A DNA stretch of 64,000 nt, from the NCBI GenBank assembly GCA_038063455.1, contig JBBTVB010000002.1:65296-129295 (forward strand), in the 5' to 3' direction. Below the pieces are notes generated by a model. It was not told where the DNA came from, did no database searches, and saw only the letters and a program-made list of their open reading frames with translations. Of the stretch, positions 2,706-47,550 are shown in pieces (positions within the stretch are counted from its first letter, which is position 1; each line of letters begins with the position of its first letter). Position numbers and translations under genes: made by a program. This DNA comes from Patescibacteria group bacterium. GTDB lineage: Bacteria; Patescibacteriota; Patescibacteriia; PEXW01.

Positions 2706-2867
2706 CACCCGTTCGATTCCCCCAATCCGGGGCCCCCACGAAGTTGGCGCGCAACGCAGTGAGCACGACTTCGTGGGGTTAAGCGAGGCTTCGCATCGAG
2801 AGCGGAGCTTTTACCGGTCACGGCAAAACGCAGCTCGACGTGCGAAACGAGCTGGTAGCGCCAAGGG
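2706..2867 (-). repeat. tandem repeat copy 1 (162 nt; period 221 nt)
   Basis: 161/162 identical to 2927..3088 (only A2813 vs G3034); ends with the last 15 nt of tRNA-Glu (CCCTTGGCGCTACCA, minus strand). Confidence 0.95.
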
Positions 2868-2930
2868 CCTGCCTGCCGGCAGGCAGGGAATCGCCCCTGA
2901 CGGGGCCGGGGTGCTACGCATGCTCGCACC
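2853..2930 (-). pseudogene. tRNA-Glu remnant: 3' acceptor/CCA end retained, body replaced by three GC hairpins
   Basis: occupies the position of tRNA-Glu in the other repeat unit; keeps CCCTTGGCGCTACCA and a GGGAATCG-CCCC T-arm trace; 20-nt palindrome CCTGCCTGCCGGCAGGCAGG inserted at the acceptor/T-stem junction; no cloverleaf. Confidence 0.55.
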
Positions 2931-2933
2931 CGT
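2906..2933. repeat. G-first hairpin motif copy A (CCGGGGTGCT-N8-TCGCACCCGT)
   Basis: shares both arms with 17670..17698 and 18353..18380. Confidence 0.7.
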
Positions 2934-3088
2934 TCGATTCCCCCAATCCGGGGCCCCCACGAAGTTGGCGCGCAACGCAGTGAGCACGACTTCGTGGGGT
3001 TAAGCGAGGCTTCGCATCGAGAGCGGAGCTTTTGCCGGTCACGGCAAAACGCAGCTCGACGTGCGAAACGAGCTGGTAGCGCCAAGGG
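2927..3088 (-). repeat. tandem repeat copy 2 (162 nt), overlapping the 3' end of tRNA-Glu
   Basis: see copy 1; contains an 11-bp stem CCCCACGAAGT/ACTTCGTGGGG, TTTGCCG-GTCA-CGGCAAA, and a GTTCGATTCCCC segment that is an inverted copy of the tRNA-Glu T-arm. Confidence 0.95.
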
Positions 3089-3148
3089 GAATCGAACCCC
3101 TATTTCTTGGATGAGAACCAAGTGTCCTAACCGGTAGACGATGGCGCC
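3074..3148 (-). tRNA. tRNA-Glu (anticodon CUC), CCA encoded
   Basis: manual cloverleaf: GGCGCCA/TGGCGCT acceptor (G1-U72), GTCT/GGAC D-stem, CTTGG-TTCTCAT-CCAAG anticodon arm, AGGGG-TTCGATT-CCCCT T-arm, ACCA. Confidence 0.9.
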
Positions 3149-16509: not shown

Positions 16510-17511
16510 CTAAGTTGAGCTACCCGGCTTTATTAGATTATTTACAATTTCGTAAAGAGGGCCTCCATCTCTTGATTCAGATTTTGTAATATAACCCGTA
16601 GGGAAGTGCCTAAACAAGGCTTCTGTGGCATGTTTTAACATGGCGTCACGAACTTCGGGTGCAGGGTTGGTGCCTAAAAAATCTTCGATCGTTTGTGCAA
16701 CATTTTTTCGATGCCTGCTAATTGCTTCAAGGTTCGATTGGATATTGTAATTTTTTGCACTAAATGCAATGGCATAACCAATCGCTGAGAGTAGCGCTAA
16801 TTTAACAAGGCCATATTGAAGAGTGAAGATTCCTCTATCGCTAAATAAGTATACATAAACATTAGCTCCCACTATGATGAAAAATGCCCAATAAAAATAA
16901 TTTCTAAACTTCAGCCACCTCGTAGCACTCTCCGTGTAGTCATTAGCTTGCTTAGCGAAATGGTGTGCTAGTTGTTTGGTTGCAACCTCACCCTTACCAG
17001 TTTCAATTAATTGCTTTTGGCTACCAAGCTCTTCAAGCTGTTGCTTTAGTTGAGTCGTTAATTCGTCGTACTGTTTTTTAGCTTGCAAAGCATCCTGACG
17101 TTCCTTTTGCAGCTCCTCTGCACTTTTACTTTTCAGGGCCAACTCTTGTCTCAGATAAACCAAATAATTTCTAAAGCTTTTAATAATACTATTGTGATGT
17201 TGTTTAATCTCATTCTCAATTCTGTCATGAACATCTTTCGCTCCTGCTTGTTGAATATCAAACTGCTCCAATTGTGTTAAGTACTGAACGAGCTGATTTT
17301 TGGCCGTGTCAATTTGATTGACTTCATCTAGTGTAAGACGAGTTTTATAATCTAAATTATCTAATTCTGTATAAAGTTTTTTTAATTCTTCAAGAATGGG
17401 CTCAACTGACTCGAAAGCCAAAGTACCTAAACGATCTCGATTCAATGCGATTGCTTTGATGTCTAAACTTGGTAAGTTTTCAGCGTTAATATCTTGTGGC
17501 ATATGTTTCAA
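16510..17511 (-). CDS. hypothetical coiled-coil protein with two C-terminal TM helices (333 aa), AT-rich ORFan
   Basis: about 190-aa heptad-rich N-terminal region, then WLKFRNYFYWAFFIIVGANVYVYLF and LVKLALLSAIGYAIAF helices; immediately downstream of the tRNA-Lys 3' end. Confidence 0.6.
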   Translation of the reverse strand: MKHMPQDINAENLPSLDIKAIALNRDRLGTLAFESVEPILEELKKLYTELDNLDYKTRLTLDEVNQIDTAKNQLVQYLTQLEQFDIQQAGAKDVHDRIENEIKQHHNSIIKSFRNYLVYLRQELALKSKSAEELQKERQDALQAKKQYDELTTQLKQQLEELGSQKQLIETGKGEVATKQLAHHFAKQANDYTESATRWLKFRNYFYWAFFIIVGANVYVYLFSDRGIFTLQYGLVKLALLSAIGYAIAFSAKNYNIQSNLEAISRHRKNVAQTIEDFLGTNPAPEVRDAMLKHATEALFRHFPTGYITKSESRDGGPLYEIVNNLIKPGSST

Positions 17512-17547: not shown

Positions 17548-17623
17548 TGGTGGGTCCGCTGGGAATCGAACCCAGAACCTTGGGCTTAAAAGGCCCCTGC
17601 TCTACCAATTGAGCTACGAACCC
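17548..17623 (-). tRNA. tRNA-Lys (anticodon UUU), CCA encoded
   Basis: manual cloverleaf: GGGTTCG/CGGACCC acceptor, GCTC-AATTGGTA-GAGC D-arm, loop CTTTTAA, CTGGG-TTCGATT-CCCAG T-arm. Confidence 0.92.
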
Positions 17624-17659
17624 AGAATTATCCTCTACTTCTTAAATAAACCTTACCTA

Positions 17660-17728
17660 CCCTGCTCTTCCGGGGTGCTCCCGATGGGTCGCACCCGTCC
17701 CTATGGGACCCAATTGAGCTACGAACCC
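17660..17728 (-). pseudogene. 5' fragment of tRNA-Lys (nt 1 to about 30) with a 41-nt hairpin insertion in the D-loop
   Basis: 19 nt identical to the tRNA-Lys 5' end (GGGTTCGTAGCTCAATTGG), then the insert, then GAGCAGGG; no anticodon or T arm. Confidence 0.7.
17670..17698. repeat. G-first hairpin motif copy B (CCGGGGTGCTCCCGATGGGTCGCACCCGT)
   Basis: 27/28 identical to 18353..18380; nested stems GGGTGC/GCACCC and CCC/GGG. Confidence 0.85.
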
Positions 17729-17774
17729 ATAACGGGCCTATTGTGCACTAATTACGCTAAATATACAAGCTCTC

Positions 17775-18323
17775 CTACTTCCCGCCTTTTGCCTTTTCAA
17801 TAAGCTTCCAGAACACTTCCCGCGTGGTTTCCACGTCGGCTTTGGCGCGGTGAGCCAGGGGCTGCGGGATTTTAAGGTAGGCGGCCACTTTGCCTAAACT
17901 ATAACTCGGCATCAACAGGTATTTACGCGCGTAGGTAAGGGTGTCGACTAAAGCATTAGTAAGCTTTGGCAAACCTAGGCGCTCCAGGTGCGCGTTAATA
18001 AAGCCTATATCAAAATTGACGTTGTGCCCCACAATCGGACAATCGCCGATAAAGGCCACCAGCCCGGGAAAAACTTTTGAAGCGGCTTGGCCCTCTACCG
18101 CCAGGAGTTCGTTGCTAATGCCGTGCACGCGGACGACTTCCGGGTCCAAAATCCTGCCCGTCTCAATAAGGCTCACGTACTCCCCGACCACCAGCTTATC
18201 CTGGATTTTTTGGGCCGCCACTTCAATAACGTCATGGCCTTCCTCGGGTTTGAGGCCGGTGGTTTCGACGTCCAAGATAACGAGCGTTGGCGAAATGCTG
18301 GGCATAGATACGTAGAATAGCAT
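17775..18323 (-). CDS. DEDDh 3'-5' exonuclease (DnaQ/epsilon-like)
   Basis: ILDVETTGL (Exo I), GHNVNFDIGF (Exo II), HRAKADVETT (Exo III); start moved to the ATG at 18323 because the track N-terminus is translated repeat sequence. Confidence 0.85.
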   Translation of the reverse strand: MLFYVSMPSISPTLVILDVETTGLKPEEGHDVIEVAAQKIQDKLVVGEYVSLIETGRILDPEVVRVHGISNELLAVEGQAASKVFPGLVAFIGDCPIVGHNVNFDIGFINAHLERLGLPKLTNALVDTLTYARKYLLMPSYSLGKVAAYLKIPQPLAHRAKADVETTREVFWKLIEKAKGGK

Positions 18324-18352
18324 AACTGCACCTCTCCTGGTCGTTGACCATC

Positions 18353-18380
18353 CCGGGGTGCTCCCAATGGGTCGCACCCG
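18353..18380. repeat. G-first hairpin motif copy C, in the 5' leader of the exonuclease gene
   Basis: CCGGGGTGCTCCCAATGGGTCGCACCCG. Confidence 0.85.
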
Positions 18381-18562
18381 CCTGCGGCTCCTCTGAGAGG
18401 AGAGGACACTTGAACAAGCTATCTTCATTTACTTTTACAGACCTGAATATATGTAGAACGTCAGCCGGGGGTCTGGGGGTGGATCGCCGCGGGGCCGGGC
18501 ATCCAGGGTGCTCTGCCGTCCTACGGAGGCGACCGCGTCGAGCCACCTCCAGCAGTCTTTGG

Positions 18563-18594
18563 GCACCACCTTTTCTGCTGCCAGAAAAGGCGGT
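18563..18594. repeat. degenerate member of the CCCNGCACCACCTT palindrome family
   Basis: GCACCACCTTTTCTG-CTGC-CAGAAAAGGCGGT; 12 nt (GCACCACCTTTT) identical to the 41819 hairpin arm. Confidence 0.55.
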
Positions 18595-18652
18595 AAATGC
18601 GTGAATGACCAAAAGTAACCGATGAACATCACTGCGTCGTCACGTACAAATG

Positions 18653-47336: not shown

Positions 47337-47388
47337 ACTTTGTGTGTCTGGGTCGGGGTGTGGCGCAGTTGGTAGCGCGCTTGCATGG

Positions 47389-47420
47389 CCCCGCACCATT
47401 CGCTCCGCTTAGGTGCGGGG
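47389..47420. repeat. hairpin H1 CCCCGCACC-N14-GGTGCGGGG inside the anticodon loop of the outer tRNA-Pro copy
   Basis: perfect 9-bp stem; arms identical to H2 and to the first 9 nt of the 41819 hairpin. Confidence 0.9.
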
Positions 47421-47450
47421 TATAGGTGCAAGATTCTCATCTCGCTGGGT

Positions 47451-47523
47451 CGGGGTATAGCGCAGTTGGTAGCGCGCTTGCATGGGGTGCAAGAGGCCGC
47501 CGGTTCAAGTCCGGCTACCCCGA
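47451..47523 (+). tRNA. tRNA-Pro (anticodon GGG); CCA not encoded (ACCC)
   Basis: manual cloverleaf: CGGGGTA/TACCCCG, GCGC-AGTTGGTA-GCGC, CTTGC-ATGGGGT-GCAAG, GCCGG-TTCAAGT-CCGGC; embedded in an 18-bp leader/trailer helix (47440-47457 with 47516-47533). Confidence 0.9.
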
Positions 47524-47550
47524 CCCAGCGAGAGGCAGTGTTCAAGCCTG

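Follow-up and report, generated by a model that had tools for sequence, protein, structure and literature searches.

Hairpin modules in partial tRNA gene copies of a Patescibacteria group bacterium as a possible footprint of a GIY-YIG-associated selfish system

In fungal mitochondria, mobile open reading frames (ORFs) of the GIY-YIG type invade genes and carry along a duplicate of the gene's end, and double-hairpin elements or GC clusters spread in the same genomes, also into RNA genes. Rickettsia palindromic elements (RPE) are lineage-specific palindromic repeats that can lie in frame in protein genes, where they add a peptide segment. Here we analyze a 28-nt hairpin motif in a 64,000-nt stretch of DNA from a Patescibacteria group bacterium (assembly GCA_038063455.1, contig JBBTVB010000002.1, positions 65,296 to 129,295; the window), together with the partial tRNA gene copies in which it resides and the small GIY-YIG genes that are surrounded by similar copies elsewhere. 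For the free-standing GIY-YIG homing endonuclease SegB of T4, two sources state that cutting within a region of tRNA genes brings about preferential inheritance and report that it also drives segmental amplification (PMC2330249, PMC13096335). Partial tRNA genes are attributed to integrating elements or CRISPR activity in an excerpt of another source (PMC9897764), and a GIY-YIG protein is listed among transferred genes in an excerpt of a further one (PMC12455944). The motif is a lineage-specific, oriented and covarying hairpin family that is concentrated in partial tRNA copies and gained or lost at orthologous sites, and the same partial-copy architecture surrounds GIY-YIG genes in many lineages. 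We give a probability of about 0.5 to the reading that the motif is a lineage-specific hairpin module of selfish, tRNA-gene-invading DNA and the partial copies the footprint of a wider GIY-YIG system.

The source genome (G000) comprises 850,625 nt in six contigs (C1-C6), is 87% complete and has a G+C content of 53%. Copy 1 of the motif, CCGGGGTGCTCCCGATGGGTCGCACCCG, lies at 17670-17697 of the window and copy 2 at 18353-18380, with a single G>A exchange between them (27/28 identical), and a relative with unchanged outer arms and a diverged core is present at 2906-2932. The pattern GGGGTGC-N6-20-GCACCC matches the window three times against a mean of 0.04 in shuffled sequence, and three matches were reached in none of 100 shuffles. 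Copy 1 is embedded in a partial copy of tRNA-Lys(UUU) on the minus strand, the intact gene of which, at 17548-17623, was called by ARAGORN and matches the Rfam tRNA model with 72 bits. Read along the minus strand, the locus begins with a 19-nt copy of the tRNA 5' end (positions 1-19, 17710-17728), which is identical to the gene at 19 of 19 positions and shares with it the preceding base as well. Directly after the D-loop residues G18-G19 follow a small hairpin, GTCCC-ATA-GGGAC (17697-17709, seen from the sequence), and the motif in its tRNA-sense form CGGGTGCGACCCATCGGGAGCACCCCGG (17670-17697, assigned by pattern match and stem covariation), which together make up a 40-nt insert in the D-loop. 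Next come AA-GAGCAGGG (17660-17669, with GAGCAGGG at 17667-17660), recognized by sequence and repeat comparison as the 3' strand of the D-stem plus the first bases of the anticodon stem, a 36-nt spacer that holds no ORF and is A+T-rich by eye (17624-17659), and the intact gene. Since one public contig covers 17577-18644 with seven differences, this arrangement is not an assembly artefact; two public DNA runs aligned to the window only confirm the assembly, and no allele without a motif unit was seen in them.

The second tRNA gene of the window with a motif copy, tRNA-Glu(CUC), is intact at 3074-3148 on the minus strand (ARAGORN, Rfam), and a remnant of its T-loop side was recognized by sequence and folding at 2853-2944 of the same strand. 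This remnant reads GGGGGAATCGAA, the variant-core motif, CCCCGTCAGGGG, CGATTCC, a hairpin CTGCCTGCCGGCAGGCAG and CCCTTGGCGCTACCA, and it overlaps a tandem duplication of the tRNA-Glu 3' end and trailer (2706-3088, minus strand) whose two copies of 162 nt (2706-2867 and 2927-3088) are 99% identical and 221 nt apart; the distal copy stops inside the motif. The tRNA-Pro(GGG) locus on the plus strand is the same phenomenon with a different hairpin. A partial 5' copy of 36 nt with 94% identity (47353-47388) lies 62 nt upstream of the intact gene (47450-47527) and runs to the anticodon, followed by a CCCCGC..GCGGGG hairpin, a spacer and the intact gene; the 28-nt motif is absent from 47353-47420. 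The original prediction, made from the letters of the window alone, had described the two hairpin copies, the variant near tRNA-Glu, and a 41-nt insert in the D-loop of a partial tRNA-Lys about 35 nt upstream of the intact gene. All of these observations hold, with 40 nt for the insert, 36 nt for the spacing and 2906-2932 for the variant as the exact values.

Partial tRNA copies beside an intact tRNA gene are also a feature of attachment-site (att) duplications. In contrast to those, the copies described here are separated by 35-330 nt that hold no integrase gene, pieces from the 5' and the 3' end are equally common, and hairpins occupy the loop positions. The sole PF00589 tyrosine recombinase gene of G000 (C2:217667-218203) is located at no motif locus. 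A tRNA intron of the group I or bulge-helix-bulge type was likewise not found at the Lys locus, where the piece ends at about position 29 and no group I or other Rfam model matched.

Genome-wide, the 850 kb of G000 hold 12 family copies, namely ten within seven substitutions and two with a diverged core, at tRNA-Glu (window 2906) and tRNA-Ala. A survey with a degenerate pattern that allowed one mismatch found the motif in all seven genomes of the own genus, with 4-14 copies per genome, and in both genomes of a sister genus; it was found in none of three genomes of a third genus of the family and none of 49 genomes of other families of the class, and the reversed pattern, used as a control, gave no match in any genome. 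Forty of the 44 copies in relatives were fetched for inspection, which left out three of G008 and one of G010. Alignment of 44 distinct 34-mers from nine genomes gives 93.4% paired cells, and pairing drops to 31-50% in slid controls. Three of the six outer pairs have changed on both sides (11 cells), for example from T-A to C-G or from GGG/CCC to GCC/GGC and GCT/AGC, a degree of covariation that none of 500 shuffles reached. The closing G-C and C-G pairs and seven of the 12 loop positions are invariant and three further loop positions are conserved to at least 90%; no covariation support was obtained for the inner CCC/GGG stem in these 34-mers. In nine genomes together, over 50 places with unrelated flanks, sites outside tRNA genes among them, carry the 28-nt sequence with its conserved 12-nt loop; the module is always paired with a second small GC hairpin. 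Folding energies are not distinctive (z = -1.0 to -1.8), and Rfam matched only tRNAs, in the window and at 11 other loci. Intrinsic terminators, the subject of a passage excerpted from 10.64898/2026.10.21.760802, do not describe the motif: a T run after the hairpin is absent at every copy, and one copy is inside an ORF.

A 24-nt pattern had no match in viral contigs and 38 matches in metagenome contigs, of which 11 were duplicates of known loci and 17 were new copies, assigned by eye to D-loops (six), T-loops (three) and hairpins with CT/GA arms (eight). The other ten (L188, L189, L192, L193, L200, L204, L209, L210, L219, L221) were set aside as chance resemblance, being native coding sequence of an MraW-family methyltransferase gene in which the match encodes the peptide ..ARPIGST.. 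and the arms do not pair fully. We think the odds are about even that the 28-nt sequence is one hairpin module of a lineage-specific family of nested-hairpin DNA inserts in this genus and its sister genus of small-genome groundwater bacteria.

The family is tied to tRNA genes. Nine of the 12 copies in G000 lie within 350 nt of a tRNA gene, as compared to a maximum of four in 20,000 random placements, and all nine have the same orientation relative to the tRNA sense. This orientation is shared by the approximately 20 of 40 copies in relatives that sit, as judged by eye, in tRNA pieces. The preference for tRNA genes and their fragments that the original prediction had raised is supported, and the motif is neither restricted to the sites in the window nor conserved there as an ordinary leader or terminator.

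Three contexts of the module could be told apart by eye in G000 and the 40 fetched copies. The first has the order small hairpin and motif in the D-loop of a partial tRNA copy, as at Tyr, Lys-UUU and Thr-UGU in G000 and in about 12 of the 40 copies in relatives; the copy in the Tyr D-loop is shared by G000 and five of its six congeners (G001, G003-G006). On a metagenome contig (L208) and in G001 (L053), second copies of tRNA-Val(GAC) and tRNA-Tyr, respectively, that are complete except for the first ~9 nt come immediately after the intact gene, with the hairpin pair in their D-loop; judging from these two loci, the module can label a 3' copy that has been displaced and not only a 5' piece. In the second context, the T class, the T-loop and 3' T-stem strand of the tRNA itself stand first in reverse complement (e.g. 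GGGAATCGAA), and then come the motif, the small hairpin and the sense-strand tRNA sequence that starts at C56 in the T-loop and extends over the acceptor strand to CCA. It is represented in G000 by Asp (two copies), Lys-CUU, Gly-CCC, Glu and Ala, and by eight of the 40 copies in relatives. In several cases the native trailer GCTCGTTTCGC follows the partial copy and not the intact gene, which suggests that at T-class loci the 3' part of the intact gene is the newer DNA.

The third context, which we term class 2, is a unit of 75-81 nt in which the module lies in the loop of a CT/GA-armed hairpin, with the order CCTCTCC, about 18 nt including GCC-GNA-GGC, the motif, the small hairpin and GGAGAGG. 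It accounts for three copies in G000 and about 20 of the 40 in relatives. The unit in the window is 75 nt long (18331-18405, minus strand) and reads on the plus strand CCTCTCC, small hairpin, motif copy 2, CCTGCGGCTCC, TCTGAGA and GGAGAGG; its limits coincide exactly with the ends of a foreign contig alignment, 18331-18405. The two further units of G000 are at C2:167330-167410 and around C6:134345-134420. Runs of TACGAAT-like heptamers precede several class 2 units (L030, L036, L037, L039, L043; G004 and G005), and a shorter run is found at an empty orthologous site of G000. An origin of the CT/GA arms as permuted tRNA-Ser acceptor strands was considered and dropped, the match being only 7 nt.

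A comparison of close relatives shows orthologous sites both filled and empty. Motif copies 1 and 2 flank a gene at 17775-18305 (minus strand) for a DEDD/DnaQ-family 3'-5' exonuclease (Pfam PF00929, 92.5 bits; also supported by NCBIfam and orthologues), which is kept beside dnaB in relatives. At this exonuclease/dnaB locus both copies are absent from the closest relative, G005 (85% identical), the upstream unit is present in G004 (79%), and G003 (70%) has neither copy and an intergenic region of only ~110 nt. Presence and absence at orthologous sites, as in a homing-type cassette, also applies to the 5' Lys piece with its D-loop copy, which is missing from G003, G004 and G005 and present on the metagenome contig L207. 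Conversely, two sites are filled in a relative and empty in G000, L037 and L062, the latter holding a 164-nt composite insert whose flanks abut in G000. In a 478-aa ORF (C2:166793-168229), the Pro/Ala-rich linker contains the class 2 unit C2:167330-167410 as an in-frame segment, and the extra peptide is found in G000 and G005 and not in G001 and G003. The same Pro-rich linker contains other extra segments in G004 and G006 (alignment columns 270-400), with peptides of the PSPPPEGGRG type that look like translated CT/GA hairpins, and in-frame hairpin insertions may recur in this protein. An in-frame insertion that is absent from some orthologues is what the RPE have in common with this one case in G000; they differ in that the elements described here are shorter (28-nt core, 75-81-nt unit), are mostly found in tRNA pieces and occur in unrelated organisms.

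The original prediction had placed copy 2 in the leader of the exonuclease gene, next to a AGGAGAGG ribosome-binding site, and had drawn attention to the motif on both sides of the gene. A cis-regulatory leader, or a hairpin that sequesters the Shine-Dalgarno sequence, would fit with GGAGAGG being located 7 nt before the first in-frame ATG and able to pair with CCTCTCC. However, what was taken for a ribosome-binding site belongs to the repeat unit 18331-18405 itself, as its 3' arm, and the entire unit is missing upstream of the orthologue in G005 and G003, while the identical class of unit is found in an ORF and in other intergenic DNA. Moreover, G003, G004 and G005 have their common start codon at the second ATG (18305), and 8 nt before it lies a -10-like box of the TATTCT/TACCAT type, in the window TATTCT, so that the class 2 unit probably lies upstream of the transcript and outside the exonuclease mRNA. 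We therefore regard a leader function as very improbable, and a role of the motif family as a regulator of the exonuclease is not supported. Nor is any meaning of the flanking arrangement for the gene supported, given the single upstream copy in G004 and the lack of both in G005, and the idea of the exonuclease as cargo between two direct repeats was rejected since relatives have the gene without the repeats.

Partial tRNA copies extend well beyond the motif. At least 13 of the 44 tRNA genes of G000, including all three in the window (Glu, Lys and Pro), have a same-strand partial copy of themselves within ~50-330 nt. At the Gln-CUG, Ser-GGA and Trp loci of this genome, a 5' tRNA piece with GC hairpins in the D- or anticodon loop is followed by a GIY-YIG ORF and then by the intact tRNA gene, and three of the four small GIY-YIG ORFs of G000 are placed in this way. 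The ORFs at these loci encode 81-87 aa and contain only the PF01541 domain. The fourth, C1:46035-46304, is not located at a tRNA gene and has the same placement in L083 and L101 from other families; downstream of it is a gene which, from its translation, looks like infC, and the ORF may be a fixed copy.

We searched other genomes of the class with a profile of the four small ORFs and inspected the best loci (n = 29). A same-strand tRNA gene follows the ORF in 24 of them, in 21 within 65 nt, and an exact copy of at least 12 nt of the 5' end of this downstream tRNA precedes the ORF in 15. The profile tally of 137/151 genomes includes the GIY-YIG domain of UvrC, as one of the five matches in G000 is a 511-aa UvrC-like frame, and is not a count of small ORFs. 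A single-protein search of named records gave 74 loci, mostly from Patescibacteria and also from Bacteroidota, Omnitrophota and Ignavibacteriales, with a same-strand tRNA after the ORF in 34, an exact 5' copy before it in 22 and a tRNA gene just upstream in 19. Among 36 loci with a 5' copy, identity to the intact gene is lost between tRNA positions 11 and 27 in 31, the break lies no more than 4 nt from the start of a perfect hairpin of ≥5 bp in 27, and the insert begins with TCCC, CCCC or CCCG in 21. A hairpin of the form (T/C)CCCGCC-N4-GGCGGG(A/G) at the D-loop break is kept across phyla, and the GTCCC-ATA-GGGAC hairpin of the window is a short form of it. Cassettes on the 3' side exist as well, in the order tRNA, ORF and 3' piece with hairpins in the T-arm (L081, L085). 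The Lys locus of the window displays the same features as the 27 of 36 cassettes, a partial copy with 19/19 identity and then a GC hairpin at the D-loop break. The idea that its spacer (17624-17659) is what is left of a GIY-YIG 3' end was dropped on account of the short length. The tRNA-Lys piece may be an ORF-less version of such a cassette and the tRNA-Glu remnant its T-loop, 3'-side counterpart.

When compared with SegB, these loci likewise have a GIY-YIG gene lodged among or in tRNA genes, and the segmental amplification reported there would fit the tandem partial tRNA duplications seen here. In contrast to SegB, the ORFs here span ~85 aa and only the catalytic domain of a predicted nuclease; they lie inside a bacterial chromosomal tRNA gene that appears to be regenerated by partial duplication, with a displaced piece whose loops carry hairpins; and the window loci are without any ORF. 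The fungal mitochondrial GIY-YIG ORFs and GC clusters introduced above correspond in that a nuclease ORF is combined with a partial gene duplication and in that small GC-rich double hairpins spread, and they differ in concerning an organelle instead of a bacterial chromosome and protein genes instead of tRNA genes, the likeness being one of architecture.

From these comparisons we propose that the partial tRNA copies may be the footprint of ~85-aa GIY-YIG genes that are lodged within tRNA genes of this class and of other phyla, each ORF between a displaced 5' (or 3') tRNA piece with GC-hairpin loops and a regenerated intact tRNA, and that the window loci would either derive from such cassettes with no ORF left or be their non-autonomous relatives. 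A nuclease of the GIY-YIG type would cut or nick tRNA-gene or hairpin DNA at loop-coding positions. Repair would then duplicate part of the tRNA gene and copy in hairpin modules from other loci, and the inserted hairpins would abolish the fold of the tRNA and the target site and would interrupt the homology to the intact copy, by which the duplication would be stabilized. Since the module is also found in the loops of CT/GA-armed hairpins, upstream of the exonuclease gene and in frame in a protein linker, it behaves in our estimation, to which we attach an even chance, as selfish DNA that either moves or is introduced by copying during repair, and not as something that regulates its neighbors. 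A more specific version is a structure-guided mobile system with the hairpin modules as its DNA (or RNA) handles, in which domain-only GIY-YIG nucleases, devoid of a DNA-binding domain, would recognize extruded stem-loops (the cloverleaf arms of tRNA genes and the conserved (T/C)CCCGCC hairpins of the cassette itself), cut their loops and drive both autonomous ORF cassettes and non-autonomous hairpin-only units, the 28-nt motif family among them, into tRNA genes and other hairpin loops; this we put forward tentatively and consider rather unlikely.

Several points weigh against a selfish, GIY-YIG-driven origin. Filled and empty sites revealed no clean target-site duplication, and no GIY-YIG ORF lies between piece and intact tRNA gene at the Lys locus of the window, where the spacer is 36 nt, or at the Glu locus, so that these loci would be connected to the nuclease through shared architecture alone. 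The small GIY-YIG proteins consist of the catalytic domain only and have no known DNA-binding part by which they would find tRNA genes. Cutting, copying and movement are read from sequence. The left arm of the T class exactly complements the tRNA's own T-loop and stem, which a simple insertion does not explain. The first pair of the inner stem is C.A on the tRNA-sense strand in 18 of the 44 sequences, owing to a frequent GGA variant, and would be G.U on the other strand, so that either strand of the module may be the active one. The strict orientation together with the conserved loop could equally mean a functional RNA, and the breadth of the Tyr D-loop copy fits long-term retention or function as well as selfishness.

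Such a functional RNA would be a structured module in which transcripts across tRNA loci contain a three- or four-way junction, built from the hairpin pair with the D-stem, an extended T-stem or the CT/GA stem as closing helix. We judge this to be unlikely, and the same holds for the roles one might assign to it in processing, stability or protein binding, for example protection of the 5' end of GIY-YIG mRNAs or direction of RNase cleavage. Besides the stem covariation with its conserved loop, an orientation that, with respect to the tRNA sense strand, is the same in every tRNA-piece copy, and the retention at tRNA-Tyr, this interpretation can draw on compensating changes in the stems of the partner hairpin between orthologues and on hairpins at the same D-loop position across phyla. 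It is less easily reconciled with the C.A variant, which breaks the inner stem on the very strand that would be transcribed, with the in-frame copy in a coding sequence and with the orthologous sites of close relatives that have no copy, and neither an Rfam family nor the modest folding z-scores lend it support. The exact complementarity of the T-class arms to the adjacent, tRNA-specific T-loop and stem (GAAGGGAATCG/CGATTCCCTTC at Asp, GGGATTCG/CGAATCCC at Lys-CUU and CGGGATTT/AAATCCCG at L055), stems that are nearly always perfect and the tandem partial duplications would instead be accounted for by passive repair scars. These would form as palindromes where tRNA genes break, through fold-back (snap-back) synthesis and template switching, and be shared by gene conversion, with no self-moving element. 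Local fold-back cannot, however, create the identical 28 nt anew each time, and the recurrence of this sequence with its 12-nt loop at more than 50 places with unrelated flanks makes a pure repair origin somewhat less likely still than the RNA module.

A REP-like element mobilized by a RAYT or an IS200/IS605-type single-strand transposase would share with the motif a short, GC-rich, imperfect palindrome that is dispersed (12 copies in 850 kb), lineage-specific and strand-biased. Against it, no RAYT was found in the 87%-complete G000, where the Y1 transposase model PF01797 had no match at E ≤ 0.1 and a TnpB-like similarity reached only 15 bits. Furthermore, the copies are single and do not form the inverted pairs of REPIN or BIME (copies 1 and 2 of the window, separated by 683 nt, point in the same direction), they prefer tRNA pieces, and the conserved GTAG-type 5' tetranucleotide of such elements is lacking, so that we consider this origin highly improbable.

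Genomes of this kind are smaller than 1 Mb and nearly all of their tRNA genes are single-copy and essential, yet at least 13 of the 44 in G000 have partial copies studded with hairpins. This suggests that a selfish process is at work on the tRNA genes of streamlined, host-dependent bacteria, and it may explain the role of the very common, uncharacterized GIY-YIG genes of 85 aa. The motif is best seen as a genus-level hairpin module of a widespread colonization of tRNA genes by small GIY-YIG genes and their hairpins, which is apparently undescribed in the literature searched, since a full-text search that covered few subscription journals returned no published account of GIY-YIG cassettes with partial tRNA duplication or of the motif. 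If a structure-guided system were to hold true, it would represent an undescribed class of bacterial selfish elements that target the shape of tRNA genes in Patescibacteria, Bacteroidota and other phyla and remodel tRNA loci in very small genomes, and a nuclease that recognizes structure could be of use as a reagent. There are practical consequences for annotation and assembly as well, as tRNA pseudo-copies are miscalled, contigs break at the repeats and hairpin units add peptide segments to proteins.

Further observations concern the surroundings of these loci. Several G000 contigs have tRNA fragments at their ends: C1 and C5 start with Val/Ile/Met-like ones, C3 and C4 end with Glu-like ones, and the assembly seems to break at repeated tRNA pieces. 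Two trailers recur after the CCA of tRNA genes in the whole genome (e.g. window 3073-3063), one GCTCGTTTCGC-like after about nine tRNAs and the other, TGAACCACTCAC, after five; TGAACCACTCAC together with CCA starts a CCATGAACC..GGTTCATGG hairpin family that is also found in other lineages. Directly downstream of tRNA-Lys, a 333-aa ORF at 16510-17511 has no Pfam match above the cut-off and is by eye A+T-rich compared to the 53% G+C genome, and it may be foreign DNA at the tRNA gene. Finally, a second repeat of the window at 18540-18620 is centered on the hairpin ACCACCTTTTCTG-CTGC-CAGAAAAGGCGGT; it has an 80-nt copy with 95% identity at C2:42749-42828, shorter copies at C2:199434, C2:20232 and C6:34426, and many copies in relatives.

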